From positions 2,480,991 to 2,544,990 of the forward strand of contig CBDBMD010000003.1 in NCBI GenBank assembly GCA_965207415.1: DNA of 64,000 nt, in the 5' to 3' direction. The position numbers and the translations under genes were made by a program. Under the pieces are notes generated by a model that did no database searches, had not been told where the DNA came from, and was given only the letters and a program-made list of their open reading frames with translations. This DNA comes from Dehalococcoidia bacterium. GTDB taxonomy: Bacteria; Chloroflexota; Dehalococcoidia; UBA2979. Shown here in pieces: positions 7,758 to 14,692 of the stretch; position 1 is the stretch's first letter, and every line of letters starts with the position of its first letter.

Positions 7758-7775
7758 TGATGTAGGCTTACATCA
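7758..7775 (+). promoter_or_regulatory. palindromic operator TGATGTA-ggct-TACATCA overlapping the vapB start codon
   Basis: Perfect 7-bp inverted repeat with a 4-nt spacer. Its last base is the A of the vapB ATG. This is the typical geometry of type II antitoxin autorepression sites. Confidence 0.4.
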
Positions 7776-8026
7776 TGAGTCACCGCACGCAGATCACGCT
7801 GACCGATGAGCAGTATGCGCGGCTGCGCGAGGAGTCCCGGCGCTCCGGCCTCGGCCTCGCGGAGCTGGTCCGCCGGGCGCTCGATCACCGTTACGGAGCG
7901 GCTCCCGGCACGGAGCTCCGGAGCGCCCTCGACGCGAGCTTCGCCTCCTGGGCGGACCGTGACTTCGATGGCGCGAGCTACGTCGAGGGGCTGCGCCACG
8001 GCATGTCTCGCCGGCTGGCGGACTGA
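7775..8026 (+). CDS. vapB: ribbon-helix-helix antitoxin (VapB-like)
   Basis: 83 aa. The N-terminal ITLTDEQYARLREESRRSGLGLAELVRRAL is an RHH fold signature. Its stop overlaps the start of the downstream PIN gene (ATGA). Confidence 0.65.
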   Translation: MSHRTQITLTDEQYARLREESRRSGLGLAELVRRALDHRYGAAPGTELRSALDASFASWADRDFDGASYVEGLRHGMSRRLAD

Positions 8027-8406
8027 TGGCGATCGTCGTCGACACCTCGGTGCTGATCGACCACCTGCGAGGCGAGGAAGCGGCTCGCGAGGCGCTTCGC
8101 GGCGCGACGGCCGCCGGCGAGCGGCTCGTCGCGTCCGTACTCACCAGGGTCGAGGTGCTGGCCGGGATGCGGGCGCCGGAGGAGCGCGCCACGCGTCGCC
8201 TGCTCGACAGCCTCGACTGGATCGAGGTGGATGACGAGCTCGCCGAACGTGCCGGCATGCTGGCCAACCGCCTTCTGCCGTCGCACCCCGGTGTCGATCC
8301 GGTCGACTACGTGATTGCGGCGACGGCCGAACGCCTCGACGCGCGACTCTGGACTCGCAACGTCCGCCACTTCCCGATGTTCCCGGAGCTCGAGCCCCCG
8401 TATTGA
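8026..8406 (+). CDS. vapC: PIN-domain ribonuclease toxin (VapC)
   Basis: 126 aa. [12 protein letters not shown] (first acidic residue), the central LTRVEV and the C-terminal TRNVRHF are typical of VapC PIN domains. Translationally coupled to the RHH gene. Confidence 0.8.
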
Positions 8407-8483
8407 GACGCTGCGGTCCACTCGCTCGCGCTAAGAACGCACGTTCGCTATACTGTGCGCGGCGGGGTACGGCAGGAGGCGGC

Positions 8484-9551
8484 GTGGACGACGAGAAGCG
8501 CGGTCCGCTGGCCCGCACGCAAACCCCCGAAGACATCTCGATCGAGCCCACGCTGCGCCCCCGGCGCCTCGAGGAGTATTTCGGCCAGGACACGGTCAAG
8601 GAGTCGCTCCGGATCGCGATCGCCGCGGCGAAGGGGCGGGGCGAACCGCTCGACCACCTGCTGATTCACGGCCCGCCCGGCCTCGGCAAGACGACGCTCG
8701 CGATGATCCTCGCCTCCGAGATGGGCGTCTCGATCCGCGTCACCTCCGGGCCGGCAATCGAGCGCGCCGGCGATCTCGCCTCGGTGCTGACCAGCCTGCA
8801 GCCCGGCGACGTGCTGTTCATCGACGAGGTGCACCGGCTGCCGCGCGTCGTCGAGGAGATCCTCTACCCGGCGATGGAGGACTGGGCGCTCGACATCATC
8901 CTCGGCAGCGGACCGAAGGCGCGCGACGTGCGGCTCACGCTCAACCGCTTCACGCTGATCGCCGCGACGACGCGCTACGCGCTGGTCTCGCAGCCGCTGC
9001 GCGACCGCTTCGGGGCGAGCTACCGGCTGGACTTCTACGACGAGGCGGCGCTGAGCGAGATCGTGCGCCGATCGGCAGGCGTGCTCGGCTGCGCCATCGA
9101 CGCCGATGGAGTCACGGCGATCGCCAGCCGGGCGCGCGGCACCGCACGCGTCGCCAACCGGCTGCTGCGCCGCGTGCGCGACTACGCCGAGGTCGAGGCG
9201 GACGGGGTGATCACCGAGCCGGTCGCCGCGCTCGCCCTCGCGCAGCTCGGCATCGACGAGCTCGGCCTCGACGCGATGGACCGCGAGCTGCTGCGCGTGC
9301 TCGTCGAGCGCTTCGGCGGCGGCCCGGTCGGCCTCGAGACGCTGGCCGCCGCGGTCTCCGAGGAGGCCGACACGATCATGGACGTCTACGAGCCGTACCT
9401 GCTGAAGATTGGCTACCTGCAGCGCACCCCGCGCGGGCGGGTCGCCTCGCGGCTGGCGTACGACCGCCTGGGCCTGGAGCCGCCCCCCGCGCTGCTCGCC
9501 GCCGTCGCGCAGCAACCCGCGCTGTTCGGCGAGGACGGCGGCGGCGCCTGA
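8484..9551 (+). CDS. ruvB: Holliday junction branch migration DNA helicase RuvB
   Basis: [13 protein letters not shown], Walker [15 protein letters not shown] and DEVHRL are RuvB AAA+ motifs. GTG at 8484 preferred over the ORF-track start at 8403, preceded by AGGAGG. Confidence 0.9.
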
Positions 9552-9561
9552 GGGCTCCGCC

Positions 9562-9767
9562 TCAACGCACCCCGAGCACCATCGCGTCGACCGGGTTGCC
9601 GGCGTCGAAGACGGCGACGGCGAGGCGGCGGCCGGCCGTGAGCTGCGCGGCGGGGATGGCGCGTGAAACCGGGACGGACGTGACCACCGAGGAGAGCGAT
9701 CCGGCGAAGCGGACGGTCGCGGTCCAGGCGGCGCTGTCGAACGAGACCAGGGTGGCGCGCTCCAGCA
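9562..9767 (-). CDS. small hypothetical protein (68 aa), last gene of the phage-derived module
   Basis: ATG preceded by GGAGGTCTAGCG. It starts 3 nt after the stop of the 656-aa upstream gene. No recognisable motif. Confidence 0.35.
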
Positions 9768-9770
9768 TCG

Positions 9771-11740
9771 CTAGACCTCCCCGAGCGTCAGGGTCTGCTC
9801 GTAGCGTGGCCGCGCGCCGCGGGAGAAGCGCAGCCGCAGGCCCGCAACGCGAAACGGCGCGGCAGCGAGGCCGGCCGCCGCGTCGCTGACCTCGATGATG
9901 TCGCCGGGCTCCTGCGCGACGTTGGGCCGCACGAGCAGCTCGCCGCGCTCGACGGCGAGGCGAGACTGGCGCAGCAGCGTGCCGGCGCGCGCGTCGACGC
10001 GGTCCTGCGCGCCGAGATTCTCGTCGACCGCGATGACCGCACCCGCGCCCTCGGCGATCGCGGCTTCGTCGGTCGCCTCGGCGAAGACGCCGCTGCCGAA
10101 GACGCGCGCCCAGCCGGCGGCCGGGCGGCCCAGCTCGATCGCGTGCGCGAGGATGGCGTGGTCCGTGCCGTAGGCATAGTCGGCTGCATCGCCCGCGGAC
10201 GGCTCGGACAGCACCAACAGGCGGCCGTCGCTGCGCAGCCGGTCGGGCAATGCCCGCAGCAGCCGCCGCATGGCGGTCGCGCCCCGCTCGCCGGCGCGGA
10301 CGGTGAACGCCGGACGCAGTAAGCCCGACTCGGCGCTCGCCCCGCGCGCGGTCAGCCGCAGCCCGGCGCGCCGGGCGATCGCGGCGAGGATCTCGATCGC
10401 GCTCCGCTGTCCCGCCTCCCAGACGAGCTGCTCCGCGGCAACCCACGCCTCGAGCAGGCCGAGCCCGTCGACGGCGTCCACCTCGACCGTAGCGGCGCCG
10501 CCACTGCGACGCCGCCGCAGTGCAGCGATCCAGAAGCGCGGCCCCTCGGATGTCTCGGTGCCGGCCGCGCTGCGGTAGCCGGGCTGCACCCACAGCTCGC
10601 CGCCGGGCGCGAGGGCGATCGGGGCGCGGGCGCCGGCGTAGCGCCCGTCCTCGTTGCGCAGCGTCAGCCACAGCCGTCCCTGTTCGCGCTGATCGATCAC
10701 GGCCTCCAGCACGTCGTCCGTCAGCTCCTGCTCGACGTGCGCGATCGGCGCGCGCCAGACCGCGTCCGGCGCTGCGAGCCAGGCGGCGGCGGGCGACGCC
10801 GCTGCGCCGAGCCCGTACGGCGAGGCGTGGACGAAGGGACGCGGGTCGCGCCATTCGCCGTCGCCGTGGAGGCTACCGGCGAGGCCCGCCGCGATCTGCA
10901 CCCGGTCGTAGGCGCCCGTGCCGCGGTAGGACTCGACGAACACGGCCTGCGGCGCGCCGGCGCGCATCAGGCCGCTCGCGAGGTAGCTGATGCCCGATCC
11001 GGCGGCTGCCGAGGCGACCGCGACGAGCGGCAGCCAGTGGCCCGGCGGCCGCGCGCCACCCGAGCCGAGCACCGTCGACCAGACGCCTGCGACTCCGTCC
11101 GCGTCGGTCCCCGACACCAGCACGTTGCAGTCCACCTCGAAGTAGGCGGCGAGGCCGCTGACCGTCGCGAGCGAGCGAGACCAGGCGACGGGCGCGGCCC
11201 ACGCGCCGAGAGCCTGGCGGCGCACCGCGTAGACGGTCCCGTCGGAGGCGTAGAGCACGGTCGCGGACCCGTCACCCTCGAGCGCCGCCGCCACCGCCGT
11301 GACGGACGAACCGGCGGTCGCCACGGTGCGCGTCGCCCCGAAGCTGGCGCCCGAGTCCGCGCTCTCGCGCACCTCGACGCGGACGCCGTCGGGGCGGACG
11401 CTGGCGAGGATGGCGCCGCTGCCGGAGGCCGCCAGCCCGAGGCGTGGCGCGACGGCGACGGTCGCGACGGTGGTCCAGTCTCCGAAGCCCGCGCCCGACG
11501 CAGGGTCGGCCACCCGCTGGCGGCTGAGCGCGCCCGTCGCGGGGTCGATGCGTGCGCGCAGCAGGGCGCCGTCGCCCGCCACGGCGAGGGCGCACGGGCC
11601 GTCGGGCTCGGCGCCCTCGTGGCTGCGCTGCCAGCGCAGCCGGATCGAGCCGGCGTCCCGGTCGAGGAGCCGCACGCGGAGGTGGGGCTCGGCACTGGCC
11701 GACTGCTGGGCGGCGCGGAGGGTGGGGGTGAGCGCTCGCA
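9771..11740 (-). CDS. large Ala/Gly-rich protein of unknown function, phage structural-like (656 aa from MRALTP start)
   Basis: The ORF extends to 11921, but MRALTPTLRAAQ at 11740 starts just downstream of the connector-like gene and is the more plausible start. No catalytic motifs. Position after the connector suggests a head/tail accessory or other virion-associated protein. Confidence 0.45.
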
Positions 11741-11752
11741 TGCGGCTTCGGG

Positions 11753-12358
11753 TTACCCGTCGCTCGGCGAGGTGAGCACGCCCGAGCGGGCGCGGCGCGC
11801 GCGGCCGTGCCTGGCCAGCGCGCGGGCGAACTCGGCGAGCCGCTCCTGCGCCCAGACGTGGTAGTGCCGCCAGGTGTCCGCCCCGCCGACGTTCACGCGG
11901 TTGACCGCGAACGAGGCCCACTCCAGCGCCGCGTAGGCGCCCGCCCCCGTCGCCACGAGGTCATCGAGCGCGGGAGGCAGCGTGCTGCCGACCTCGTCGA
12001 GCGTGTGCAGCTTCGAGTAGTGGACCGTGACCGCCTCGTCCCCGTCCGGCGGCGCGCCGACCTGCAACGTCAGCGTGTCGCCCCAGAGCGAGAACGGCGG
12101 CCGCGAGGGCGGGTACAGCCCGACCGGGTACTCGACAGCGTCGACGCTGACGCGGTCGGTCAGGGCCGCGACGCTGAGGTCGCGGCTGCCGGCGACCGTC
12201 CGCAGCGCCGCGCTCGTCTCGAGCGGCGCGGCGAGCGAGAGCTCGCGGACGGCGCGCTCGATGTGCCGGTCGAGCGCCTCGTCGGGCCAGCGCTCGTTCG
12301 CCGGGTCGGTGTCGCGGAGGTCGCGGCGCAGCCGCGCGCGCATCGACGGCAGGTCCAT
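11753..12358 (-). CDS. phage gp6-like head-tail connector domain protein (about 201 aa)
   Basis: N-terminal MRARLRRDLRDTDPANERWPDEALDRHIERAVRELS resembles the gp6-like head-tail connector motif (by analogy, from memory, with K/RAHLRIDxDDDDALIxxLIxAAR). Start MDLPSM at 12358 is preceded by GAGGAAGAG. Confidence 0.4.
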   Translation of the reverse strand: MDLPSMRARLRRDLRDTDPANERWPDEALDRHIERAVRELSLAAPLETSAALRTVAGSRDLSVAALTDRVSVDAVEYPVGLYPPSRPPFSLWGDTLTLQVGAPPDGDEAVTVHYSKLHTLDEVGSTLPPALDDLVATGAGAYAALEWASFAVNRVNVGGADTWRHYHVWAQERLAEFARALARHGRARRARSGVLTSPSDG

Positions 12359-12469
12359 CTCTTCCTCGATTCGGGCTGGGGAGACCGGGGGTTGGCGGAG
12401 AGGGGTTGGGGAGGAGGGCGGCCGCCCGGCGCCGGCCGGACGGGCCGCCCTCGTGCTCACGGAGTCTGG

Positions 12470-13360
12470 CTAGGGGCGGACGCCGCTGAGCTTCGCGAGC
12501 TTGAGCTCGTTGAAGAGCGCCACGGAGACGTACCACTTGACCCGCACGCGAGTCGCGTCCTTCGTCTCCAGCGCACCGACGCGCTCGATCGTCAGCCCGC
12601 CGGGCGCGGTCAGCCCGGCCACGGCGCCCTCGCCGAACTGCAGGGCGTAGACCGTCGAGGTGTCCTCGGACGTGCCCGTGGTGTCGTCGTCGGCGATGTG
12701 GTCGTTCACGCCGATCGGGATGCCGTCGTAGAAGGCGACCATGCGGCCGAACTCGTCGCGGTCGTGCTCGACGACGCCGCCGCCCGCCGCACGCGCGAGC
12801 TTGTTGAGCGCCCGCCGCGAGCGGCGCGACATCAGCAACATTTCCGGCTTCCCGCCCCGCACCGTATCGATCAGCTCGTCGAGCTTGTCGAGGGTGAGCG
12901 TCGCGCCGTTCGCGCCCATCGAGACCGTCTGCGCCGCCGGGCACAGCTCGTCGAGGCCGTCGAACGACTTCGCATCGCTGCTCGTGTCGCCATTGATGAA
13001 CGTGTCGTCGAACTTCTGCTGGACGGACTTCGCCTTGAGCGCGACGACCGCCGCCTCGATGTCCTGCACGTTGTTGCGGGTGCGGGCGATGTAGTTGTCG
13101 ATGTCCGCGTCGCCGCCGAGGATCGTCAGCGCGGTCGTGATCTGCGTGAACGTCGGCGTGTCCTCGGACCAGGTGTCGCCCACCGAGTAGAAGCCGGCCG
13201 AGGCCGAGAGCTTCTCGCGGTTGTAGGTGAGGCCATTGCCGACGATCTCGATGAACGGCAGCCGCTGCAGGATCGGGCTGTCGTAGATCACCGTCTCGAT
13301 CACGCCCTCGAGCAGGACGTCGTTCGAGAGCTTCGCGCCTTCGGTCAGGGTCAGTGCCAT
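12470..13360 (-). CDS. phage major capsid protein (HK97-fold-like)
   Basis: 296 aa beginning MALTLTEGAKLSNDVLLEGVIETVIYDSPILQRLPFIEIVGNGLTYNRE. I recall this N-terminal pattern from proteins annotated as phage major capsid proteins in high-GC Gram-positive genomes. A scaffold-like gene lies immediately upstream. Confidence 0.55.
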   Translation of the reverse strand: MALTLTEGAKLSNDVLLEGVIETVIYDSPILQRLPFIEIVGNGLTYNREKLSASAGFYSVGDTWSEDTPTFTQITTALTILGGDADIDNYIARTRNNVQDIEAAVVALKAKSVQQKFDDTFINGDTSSDAKSFDGLDELCPAAQTVSMGANGATLTLDKLDELIDTVRGGKPEMLLMSRRSRRALNKLARAAGGGVVEHDRDEFGRMVAFYDGIPIGVNDHIADDDTTGTSEDTSTVYALQFGEGAVAGLTAPGGLTIERVGALETKDATRVRVKWYVSVALFNELKLAKLSGVRP

Positions 13361-13476
13361 CGTGTCGTGTTCCGTTCCTTCCGGCGCGCGCCGCGCGCCT
13401 TGCTCGCCATTGCCGCGGGCACGCTAGAGGCGTGCGCGCGCTGCTCCGAGGGCCATGTGGCAGCGCTCGCCGCCGG

Positions 13477-13965
13477 CTACGTCCGGCTCCGCTGCTCGAG
13501 GCCGTACGCGATCTTCTCGGCCGTGCTCATCGCCTCCGTGCGCGGTCCGCGCCGCTCCGGCGCACCGGCGGGGAAGCCGCGCGCCGCCTCGTCCTCCGAC
13601 TCGCGGGCGATCCGCTCCCGGATCTCCGCGACCGTGCGGCGCGCCGCCTCGACCGAGGCATCGACCGCCTCGGTGTCGTCGCCCTCGACCAGTTCGGGCG
13701 GTAGCGACGGCTCGGCCGTCAGCAGCGCACCGCGGTAGCGCGCGACGGCGGCCCGGCGCGCCGCGCGCTCGGCGTCGAGGGCGTCCCGGGCCTCCTGCAG
13801 CTCGCTGCGCAGCGTGGTCAGCTCGTCGTGTTCCGCCTCAGCGACGGCGGCGAGCTCTGCCGCCGCCTCGTCGGGCAGGTCGTCCCCGGACGGTTCGGGA
13901 TCCGCGATCGGCTCGCTCGAGGCCGCGTCCTCACCGTCCTGCTCAATCGCGTCGTGTTCGGTCAT
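13477..13965 (-). CDS. phage scaffolding-like protein (acidic, coiled-coil)
   Basis: 162 aa, very acidic (D/E-rich) N-terminus and heptad-like Ala/Glu/Arg-rich segments. It lies directly upstream of the capsid gene, the classical scaffold position. SD AAGGAGAG before the ATG. Confidence 0.4.
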   Translation of the reverse strand: MTEHDAIEQDGEDAASSEPIADPEPSGDDLPDEAAAELAAVAEAEHDELTTLRSELQEARDALDAERAARRAAVARYRGALLTAEPSLPPELVEGDDTEAVDASVEAARRTVAEIRERIARESEDEAARGFPAGAPERRGPRTEAMSTAEKIAYGLEQRSRT

Positions 13966-14080
13966 GCGTCTCTCCTTCGGTCAATCCGGTGTCCCGGATC
14001 AGCGTTGTCGAAGAGCACGCTGCGCGTTGCGCGCGGGAACTCCGAGCGCCGGGTGGCGCTCCGCGCTGTACGATCCGGCC

Positions 14081-14692
14081 ATGACGACTCCCGAGACCAC
14101 GGCTTCCGAGACGGCGGCTTCCGAGGCCACGCCGCCGCCTGACGGCGCGCGGATCACGATCCGCCCGCTTACGCCCTCCGACGTGCGCACGGTGCGGCGG
14201 CTGGAGCGCGCCGCCTACGGATCCGCCAACCCGCGCACCGCGTTCGAGCGCGAGCTGCGCAACGGCCTCGCGAACTACCTCGTCGCCGTCGACGCCGCGC
14301 CCGACGCCGCGCGGCCGCCGCGACGCGGGCTGCTCGGCTGGCTACGCCGGCGCCTCGGGGCTGCCGAGGGCCCGCCGATCCTCGGCTTCGCGGGCGCCTG
14401 GTACACGCATGAGCAACTGCACCTGGTCACGCTCGCCGTGGATCCGCGCAAGCAGCGGCAGGGCATCGGGCTCGCGCTGGTGCTCGCCGTCTGCGACCTG
14501 GCGATCGAGGCCGAACTCGACAGCGTCGCGCTGGAGGTGCGCGCCTCGAACGCGGGCGCGCTACGGCTCTACGAGCGCTGCGGCTTCCGTCGGGTCGGCC
14601 ACCTGCGCCGCTACTACAGCAACAACGGCGAGGACGCGATTGTGATGCTGCTGGACGGCCTCACCGCGCGCACGGTGGGCGAAGAAGACTGA
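14081..14692 (+). CDS. GNAT family N-acetyltransferase (RimI-like)
   Basis: Acetyl-CoA binding motif RKQRQGIGLALV (Q/RxxGxG/A), a C-terminal LYERCGFR motif and about 200 aa length. ATG at 14081 preferred over the longer ORF beginning at 13814. Confidence 0.75.
   Translation: MTTPETTASETAASEATPPPDGARITIRPLTPSDVRTVRRLERAAYGSANPRTAFERELRNGLANYLVAVDAAPDAARPPRRGLLGWLRRRLGAAEGPPILGFAGAWYTHEQLHLVTLAVDPRKQRQGIGLALVLAVCDLAIEAELDSVALEVRASNAGALRLYERCGFRRVGHLRRYYSNNGEDAIVMLLDGLTARTVGEED

Follow-up and report, generated by a model that had tools for sequence, protein, structure and literature searches.

A predicted gp27-type tail hub fused to a beta-propeller, and its OB-fold neighbour, in a candidate gene transfer agent-like island of Dehalococcoidia

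A 64,000-nt stretch of DNA from a Dehalococcoidia bacterium (assembly GCA_965207415.1, contig CBDBMD010000003.1, positions 2,480,991–2,544,990; hereafter the window) contains an island of five phage-derived genes on one strand, in the order scaffold-like gene, major capsid protein (MCP), head-to-tail adaptor, a 656-amino-acid (aa) protein and a 68-aa protein. The last two are best explained as the tail-tip hub and an OB-fold partner of a vertically inherited, podovirus-type particle resembling a gene transfer agent (GTA), with a probability of about 0.6 for this reading as a whole. The parts of the reading differ in strength. Predicted structures make it very probable that the two proteins are tail-tip components. 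Whether the island belongs to a domesticated particle system that still functions is evenly balanced on the gene evidence, and the element can be put forward as a bona fide GTA only tentatively, as a candidate. Just as tentative is the fullest version of the proposal, a class-wide Dehalococcoidia GTA-like element of ~7–10 genes encoding a minimal podovirus-type particle, with a tail made of the adaptor, a gp27-type hub fused to a propeller, and a 68-aa OB plug. Such a GTA lineage, and a tail in which a hub seated on the adaptor is both receptor binder and DNA gate, would not have been described before.

Open reading frames (ORFs) of more than 100 aa are found in all six frames around the two genes, where the local GC content is ~70–77%. 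The minus-strand frames were chosen because GC at third codon positions (GC3) is 0.90–0.96 and GC1 (~0.8) exceeds GC2 (~0.6) between 9.8 and 11.8 kb, in a phase matching only the minus-strand ORF that ends at 9771. The hub gene lies at 9771–11741 on the minus strand (ATG 11741–11739, TAG 9773–9771), a call that draws on the GC3 frame, homologs, the structural model, the fold search and the ratio of non-synonymous to synonymous substitution rates (dN/dS). The 68-aa gene, a candidate channel plug or spike base, lies at 9562–9768 on the same strand (ATG at 9768, TGA 9564–9562) and was called from homologs and its structural model. The gap between the hub stop codon and the second start is 2 nt, and a Shine-Dalgarno sequence, GGGGAGG (9776–9782, minus strand), read within the 3' end of the hub gene, lies 7 nt upstream of the second ATG. 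The end of the 68-aa gene and the stop codon of the convergent ruvB (8403–9551, plus strand) are 10 nt apart. The 656-aa protein has ~85 homologs of near-constant length (~656–660 aa), and the 68-aa protein has 57, of which the full-length members are 66–78 aa long with 18 invariant positions and the three lowest matches are partial. Both ORFs are real minus-strand genes. The initial annotation of this stretch had called both, with the second tightly coupled and preceded by a good Shine-Dalgarno sequence, at the distal end of a capsid module; all of this holds, except that its upper boundary of 11740 was one base short. An exact-sequence look-up of the 656-aa protein returned no record, and promoter and terminator scans of 9300–14400 returned no sites.

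The AlphaFold2 (AF2) model of the 656-aa protein, built with a 49-sequence alignment, has a mean predicted local distance difference test score (pLDDT) of 93.0 and a predicted template modelling score (pTM) of 0.89. Its C-terminal half, an alpha/beta region at residues ~341–656 (9774–10721, minus strand), is predicted to have the hub fold of gp27, Mu gp44, P2 gpD and VgrG, a multi-domain fold typified by two tube-like beta-barrels. The first 36 Foldseek matches of the model in PDB are all baseplate or tail hubs (prob 1.0, E 2e-15 to 1e-8). Matches of the hub region include hubs of extracellular contractile injection systems (eCIS; 7aef_q, 2e-15, and 7b5h, 4e-15), Mu gp44 (1wru; E 3e-13, target template modelling score (TMt) 0.69), the Mu-like 43-kDa tail proteins of Neisseria and Shewanella (3d37 and 3cdd; TM 0.64–0.71, with TMt 0.70 for 3d37), T4 gp27 (1k28_D; E 4e-9), VgrG1, and the hubs of P1, phage 80alpha, R-pyocin and diffocin. 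Among the predicted viral structures of BFVD, this half matches proteins named 'Phage protein D', '43 kDa tail protein' and 'Mu gpP'.

The N-terminal half, residues ~18–340 (10722–11690, minus strand), is modelled as a beta-propeller. DSSP on the AF2 model gives about six four-stranded beta-sheets; a regular-expression search found a single Asp-box, SADSGASF, at residue 127; and there are weak Foldseek matches to propeller lectins and one sialidase, with a root-mean-square deviation (rmsd) of 14–16 Å and ranks after the hub matches. A catalytic sialidase or BNR propeller was considered and rejected. Such glycosidases are marked by a FRIP motif, an arginine triad, more than one Asp-box and catalytic Tyr, Glu and Asp residues. 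The protein has only the one Asp-box and a 'RARIDP' motif, and the Asp of both is lost in two homologs (L047 and L048; related loci are numbered in this way) of 25–29% identity. The propeller is treated as non-catalytic.

Alanine and glycine make up 31.7% of the 656-aa protein, against a mean of 22.4% (standard deviation 3.9) for the 37 window proteins, or 2.4 standard deviations above it, and the GC content of the gene is 77.2%. The whole-protein entropy of 3.69 bits is inside the range of the window proteins, and not one residue of the model has a pLDDT below 70, which rules out a low-complexity or disordered protein. Of the earlier description as low-complexity and Ala/Gly-rich, the composition thus stands and the complexity does not. 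The lack of a recognisable enzymatic motif was rightly noted, and the suggestion of a fibre, host-recognition protein or beta-propeller is plausible, since the N-terminal half is predicted to be a propeller and there is no other fibre gene. The portal-like protein also proposed there is rejected: no portal was matched, and related loci encode their true portal in a gene of its own, of the SPP1_portal family. A packaged cargo has no support. Structure prediction, the check recommended in that annotation, thus gave the propeller and not the portal, together with the gp27/gpD-type C-terminal hub, which had been overlooked.

No Pfam, PHROGs or NCBIfam family matched the window protein or five homologs, distant ones included, at E <= 1, apart from a weak Pfam BNR_2 match (E 0.025) in one distant homolog. 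Profile searches of the hub and OB families against PDB sequences gave only noise, and neither the hub nor the adaptor had a tblastn match among 50,697 phage records. The hub assignment is structural only, because the protein and its distant homologs are recognised by no curated sequence family or PDB sequence profile. The hub family numbers 1762 cluster representatives at E <= 1e-3, and 522 at E <= 1e-30, in a library grouped at 50% identity; most are ~650–680 aa long. It is a large orphan family with no current annotation. The window hub has no lysine in its 656 residues, where ~8.7 would be expected from the window background of 1.3%, and its homologs have 0–6. Several other window proteins are nearly lysine-free, and the low lysine content may reflect a general lysine-to-arginine shift in a high-GC genome.

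The AF2 model of the 68-aa protein (pLDDT 92.8) consists of three beta-strands, a short helix and two further strands, a predicted five-stranded OB fold. Its best Foldseek matches in PDB are weak (E 5e-3 to 7e-2) and include IF1, Mu gp45, P2 gpV, VgrG1, the R2 pyocin spike and T4 gp5; chains containing the OB domain of a spike base rank 2, 3, 6, 25 and 42 (E 6e-3 to 6e-2). The protein had no Pfam match even at E <= 1, Phage_base_V included, and scans of PHROGs and NCBIfam gave nothing usable. Its gene co-occurs with the hub gene in every related locus that reaches far enough. In the Dehalococcoidia loci recovered, it is immediately downstream of the hub gene, at 2 nt in the window and ~2–80 nt elsewhere.

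More distant relatives are mobile. A scan of IMG/VR with the MCP recovered short contigs of 47–56% GC. The same scan with the hub alignment gave no match, a false negative, as the MCP scan later recovered contigs encoding distant hub homologs; the hub-alignment scan missed these because it depends on two peptide patterns. Four mobile relatives (L044, L046, L047 and L048) have a compact, co-directional arrangement, and the mobile gene set comprises ArdC-like, tyrosine integrase, RepO-like, PolB-like, small terminase (TerS)-like, large terminase (TerL), portal, scaffold, MCP and adaptor genes. After the adaptor come a 69-aa OB homolog, four tiny ORFs and a hub homolog of 754 or 892 aa. These hub homologs align over all 656 residues at 25–29% identity. 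Between adaptor and hub, the mobile relatives have no gene for a tube, tape measure, sheath or fibre, and in this lineage, to judge from these gene sets, the whole tail consists of the adaptor, OB protein and hub. The hub homolog of L048 carries a CBM5/12-like insertion and that of L047 a long, fibre-like ATLSGxGSL repeat extension. The hub thus tolerates insertions of a surface type, and both fit an exposed, cell-binding role for it. In two parts of these contigs with 47–55% GC (L044:2800–6671 and L048:8733–9479), ArdC-N-like, tyrosine integrase and RepO-like initiator genes and a Pol-beta-type nucleotidyltransferase were observed beside the terminase. The gene content suggests that the low-GC mobile relatives are a very small (~12–15 kb) temperate lineage of short-tailed phages or satellites.

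The order of genes in the mobile relatives bears on the position of the 68-aa protein. In L046, L047 and L048 its homolog is encoded directly after the adaptor, 1.2–2.5 kb before the hub, and in the siphophage Ab18 the gene after the adaptor Ad1 is that of the head-closure protein Hc1. The 68-aa protein could on these grounds be an Hc1-like head-closure protein, or stopper, between the adaptor and the hub, instead of a distal spike-base plug. This is unlikely, though it is the alternative that survives best. No stopper is found among the best 50 Foldseek matches, which do contain the OB domains of Mu gp45, P2 gpV, VgrG, the pyocin spike and T4 gp5, and in the Dehalococcoidia loci the gene follows the hub and not the adaptor.

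Taken as hub and plug, the two proteins would complete a particle with a podovirus-like stub tail, composed of a portal dodecamer, an adaptor dodecamer, the hub and the OB plug. The 656-aa protein would take the position of a nozzle while being built on a gp27-type hub. Most likely it would form a trimer with pseudo-sixfold symmetry, as in gp27-type proteins and in keeping with the adaptor, that docks on the adaptor and closes the DNA channel. Three outward-facing propellers would be the sole module for binding the cell surface, because no fibre gene exists. An OB trimer would plug the channel in the manner of the gp5 or gpV OB domain under gp27 or gpD, with no beta-helical needle; binding to the receptor would free this plug, and the DNA would exit.

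A nozzle of the known kind is the next alternative. In the tails of SU10 and T7, a portal dodecamer is followed by an adaptor dodecamer and one large tail protein, and the channel is plugged by a small trimer (PMC9509320). The large protein, the nozzle, is a hexamer on the adaptor with a platform beta-sandwich, a seven-bladed beta-propeller that lines the channel, and nozzle domains, and the nozzle proteins of T7 and SU10 have no sequence similarity to each other (PMC9509320). The 656-aa protein is of comparable size, its gene directly follows that of an SU10/T7-type adaptor, and its N-terminal half is a predicted propeller, which could then line the channel under the adaptor in a hexamer of the T7 gp12/SU10 gp17 type. 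Still, the strongest and most consistent structural matches of the C-terminal half are gp27, gpD and VgrG hubs. No T7 or SU10 nozzle chain appears among the best 50 PDB matches, and the propeller matches are generic, with the high rmsd given above. A hexameric nozzle is accordingly considered improbable.

The hub and OB genes belong to an island that is conserved in the species-level genomes recovered. A scan of one genome per GTDB species yielded 32 loci, all in metagenome-assembled genomes (MAGs) of Chloroflexota/Dehalococcoidia, with hub identities to the window from 92% down to 38%. By tblastn, most loci have the order GNAT (divergent), scaffold-like gene, MCP, an optional 129-aa gene, adaptor, hub, OB gene and ruvB; a few have no GNAT or scaffold-like match. 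The distance from the OB gene to ruvB is 0.1–5 kb, and the orientation of ruvB varies by clade. One locus (L049) has the ClpB-DsbA-VKOR-GNAT flank in common with the window.

Divergence of the island follows that of the chromosome. The Spearman correlation between pairwise identities and RuvB identity is 0.81 for the MCP, 0.89 for the adaptor, 0.88 for the hub and 0.83 for the OB protein, and the MCP is as conserved as RuvB, with mean pairwise identities of 0.814 and 0.807. By the Nei-Gojobori method, dN/dS of the window against nine close relatives is 0.06–0.18 for the MCP (0.07–0.15 for RuvB), 0.18–0.33 for the hub, 0.12–0.44 for the OB gene, 0.23–0.36 for the adaptor and 0.22–0.35 for the scaffold-like gene, values that are approximate because the extreme GC3, near saturation, constrains dS. 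Synteny, co-divergence and dN/dS together indicate that the island is inherited vertically in Dehalococcoidia under purifying selection, as opposed to being a decaying remnant or the product of repeated integration.

A prophage remnant with no present function is thus very improbable. It would account for an island of only five phage-like genes, with no portal, terminase, integrase or lysis gene found within 64 kb, and for split hub alignments in three loci (L024, L028 and L031). Against this, the gene set and gene lengths are constant in 32 species-level genomes, down to the lowest hub identity; all five genes have a dN/dS well under 1, that of the MCP equalling that of RuvB; the island co-diverges with RuvB; and the split alignments come from long-read MAGs, in which indel errors are common. 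Least likely is an integrated element that is still mobile, either a mini-prophage or a satellite that forms capsids, with the ruvB region as its recurrent target. True mobile relatives do exist, such as L044, with integrase, RepO, TerS/TerL, portal and MCP at 47% GC, and in L005 the module includes portal and TerL, with an integrase at a distance of 8 kb. But the window island has host-like GC3 and neither an integrase nor a replication gene, it has its ClpB, DsbA, VKOR, GNAT and RuvB flanks in common with distant relatives, its divergence follows that of RuvB, and the housekeeping genes between the two modules of the element keep the same order across species.

The second of these modules, for packaging, is present in relatives of the window. 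L005 has its genes for a portal of the SPP1 family and a large terminase (matching PHROG terminase families at E 2e-9) between the adaptor and the hub. Nine other loci (L017, L022, L023, L025, L027, L039, L040, L049 and L050) have a separate terminase-portal module 4–9 kb beyond ruvB on the opposite strand, consisting of four small ORFs (one TerS-like), TerL, a small helix-turn-helix protein and the portal. Between the two modules lie two ABC transporters and a thioesterase in L040 and L049/L050, with PspC as well in L040, and valyl-tRNA synthetase and PspC in L039. In L039, L040, L049 and L050, the stretch that separates the two modules contains no integrase or replication gene.

At the level of the element, a domesticated GTA-like particle would fit better than a prophage, because its genes are for structure and packaging and not for integration or replication, its two modules are interrupted by housekeeping genes, it is inherited vertically under purifying selection, and its hub gene is enriched in GC and in alanine and glycine. 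Phage-derived structural genes are fixed in the chromosome and passed on vertically, as judged by synteny, co-divergence with RuvB and the flanks from ClpB to RuvB. They are under selection and have no replication or integration genes of their own, with the exception of L005 and its nearby integrase.

Several points weigh against this reading. The hub assignment rests on predicted structure, the searches of Pfam, PHROGs, NCBIfam and PDB sequence profiles all being empty. The OB fold is generic, and the OB domains of IF1 and of proteasomal ATPases score as well as those of spikes. In the mobile relatives the OB gene follows the adaptor and not the hub, a position that also fits a stopper. The stoichiometry of the hub, trimer or hexamer, is a proposal by analogy, and to our knowledge a hub placed directly on an adaptor with no tube has no documented precedent; no tube or distal-tail gene was found in the island or in the mobile relatives. 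The window and the ±10-kb flanks of its clade, in which ruvB is convergent, have no terminase or portal genes, and the particle of this genome could be incomplete unless these genes sit elsewhere. The dN/dS values carry the approximation stated above, and the particle, its packaging and any DNA transfer are read here from gene content.

The rest of the window is core chromosome. Its genes include Ppx/GppA, inositol monophosphatase, a DEAD-box helicase, a ribbon-helix-helix (RHH) pair, RuvB, GNAT, VKOR, DsbA, ClpB, Hsp20, SecA, phosphoribosyl pyrophosphate synthetase, DnaE, MoxR/VWA, the hrcA-grpE-dnaK-dnaJ operon and Rho. Even at tblastn E < 5, the 64 kb gave no gene for a portal, terminase, integrase or replication protein; no lysis gene was found there either, and the GC3 of the island is that of the host. 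The window is the chromosome of a high-GC Dehalococcoidia bacterium with a five-gene phage-derived island, and not a phage. The normal phage context assumed in the initial annotation does not apply, because the portal, terminase, integrase and replication genes are missing; what it took for a phage is a reduced, vertically inherited chromosomal element. It was right that a 656-aa protein directly after a connector is atypical, and its proposed check for homologs co-occurring with the capsid gene in other genomes came out strongly positive.

All other island genes are on the minus strand upstream of the hub. The adaptor, of SU10/T7 type, is at 11753–12460 (Pfam SU10_adaptor, 7e-10, above cutoff, over residues 35–224). 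It would have 235 aa from a GTG at 12460 and 201 aa from an ATG at 12358; its orthologs have 207–211 aa, and the ATG is the more likely start. The MCP, at 12470–13360, is a 296-aa protein of the HK97 fold and epsilon15/SU10 type (PHROG 212, 2e-71; Pfam Phage_capsid, GP7 and SU10_MCP; NCBIfam MCP_gp7_epsi_15, 3.6e-58), with 43% identity to phage MCPs. A 162-aa acidic coiled-coil protein at 13477–13965 is a probable scaffold, with a weak match to PHROG 1793 'head scaffolding' (3e-3). Its gene precedes that of the MCP in most loci, as it does in the mobile relatives, and was not detected in the L022/L023/L025/L039 clade. The longest GNAT ORF (13814–14692) overlaps the scaffold-like gene on the opposite strand. 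The true GNAT start is probably near 14080–14150, because the Pfam match begins at about residue 113 and orthologs have ~210–220 aa. The short divergent region between the GNAT and scaffold-like genes could hold a promoter for the island. On the other side of the island, an RHH (CopG) gene at 7775–8026 and an overlapping 126-aa ORF at 8026–8406, directly upstream of ruvB, resemble a toxin-antitoxin pair; neither ruvA nor ruvC is next to ruvB in the window.

Some of the related loci have additional genes. In the L022/L023/L025/L039 clade, an extracytoplasmic function (ECF)-type sigma-70 gene and a 382-aa gene (L039:6389–8268) lie directly upstream of the capsid gene, in the place that the scaffold-like gene has elsewhere, and may be a host regulator of the island. 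An AIPR gene (abortive-infection type) is inserted on the opposite strand between the scaffold-like and capsid genes of L003 (5683–7449). A gene of 129–132 aa between the capsid and adaptor genes (L003:8533–8922, L001:4205–4603, L017, L021, L026, L027 and L033) has no family match and is absent in the window clade; it may encode a decoration protein. In L001, two more genes, for proteins of 155 and 126 aa, precede the adaptor, and the OB gene is followed by one for a 109-aa membrane protein (PHROG 20258). In L008, ~4 kb is inserted between the OB gene and ruvB (L008:16016–16336 and L008:11974–18073), flanked by a duplicated convergent junction made of the last ~90 aa of RuvB and the last ~28 aa of the OB protein; this looks like an insertion with target duplication at the junction of the gene ends. 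Two loci with one isolate identifier (ad336184-...), L009 and L028, have different islands, with hub identities of 80% and 59%, and the L028 version has frameshift-like breaks. The pair may represent a mixed MAG or a second, degraded copy.

If the proposed reading is true, there is a vehicle for gene exchange in the Dehalococcoidia, a large class, for the most part uncultured, with an important place in subsurface, marine and sponge-associated communities. A gp27-type hub could then serve as the whole tail of a capsid, linking the hubs of long-tailed phages, type VI secretion systems (T6SS) and contractile injection systems to the nozzle position of short tails. An unannotated orphan family, with the 1762 cluster representatives counted above, would gain a name and a testable structural role, and capsid and packaging modules split around ruvB would be a marker for spotting the element in metagenomes.

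Of the known systems, the gp27-type hubs (T4 gp27, Mu gp44, P2 gpD, the N-terminal part of VgrG, Afp8/Pvc8 of eCIS and the N-terminal domain of siphophage Tal) are alike in the fold predicted for the last ~320 residues (prob 1.0, E to 2e-15, TMt 0.6–0.71) and in gene order, with an OB-fold gene next after the hub gene, like gp5 after gp27 and gpV after gpD. The window hub differs in having no sequence match to any hub family (Pfam Phage_GPD, T6SS_Vgr and Phage-tail_3; PHROG tail families) and in an added N-terminal beta-propeller of ~320 residues. Its island has no tube, sheath, tape-measure or other baseplate genes, so that the hub would sit on the adaptor, and its OB partner is only 68 aa long, with no beta-helix needle. 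That partner is predicted to have the same five-stranded OB fold, of the same size, as the N-terminal domain of Mu gp45, P2 gpV and T4 gp5, and is likewise encoded beside a gp27-like hub. It is too short for a beta-helix, has no apex domain, and its matches are weak in E and equalled by generic OB folds.

The nozzles of short-tailed phages (T7 gp12, SU10 gp17) have in common with the island the order of adaptor, large propeller protein and small plug, an adaptor of the SU10_adaptor family, and, as predicted, the overall build of portal, adaptor, a single large tail protein and plug (PMC9509320). No platform or Ig-like nozzle domains were detected in the window hub, and the half with the strong matches is gp27-like, a fold not described in nozzles. 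The plug is a 68-aa OB fold where these phages have a long trimeric needle, and the island has no fibre genes.

Known GTAs are few and mostly from Alphaproteobacteria, with a handful of other lineages; all that we know of are of long-tailed ancestry. A GTA particle packages random host DNA, in an amount too small to encode the element itself, and delivers it to recipient cells. Those compared here (the viriforms RcGTA, BaGTA, VSH-1, Dd1 and VTA) differ from the Dehalococcoidia element in having siphovirus-like tails with a tube and tape measure. The element is from Chloroflexota, and the window itself has no packaging module. In full-text searches of the literature, neither a GTA nor a domesticated capsid turned up for Chloroflexota/Dehalococcoidia, and the IME1 elements of Dehalococcoides are unrelated elements of filamentous type (bioRxiv 10.64898/2026.09.15.751708). 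The likeness to GTAs is in a chromosomal, vertically inherited, phage-derived set of head and packaging genes, the lack of replication and integration genes, split loci and purifying selection. The hub gene of the window also has elevated GC and many cheap residues (alanine and glycine), a trend reportedly described for GTAs by Kogay et al. 2020. Set beside these systems, the combination is not categorically new; its novelty would be a gp27-type hub in a tube-less position next to the adaptor, together with a candidate GTA-like element in a new phylum.

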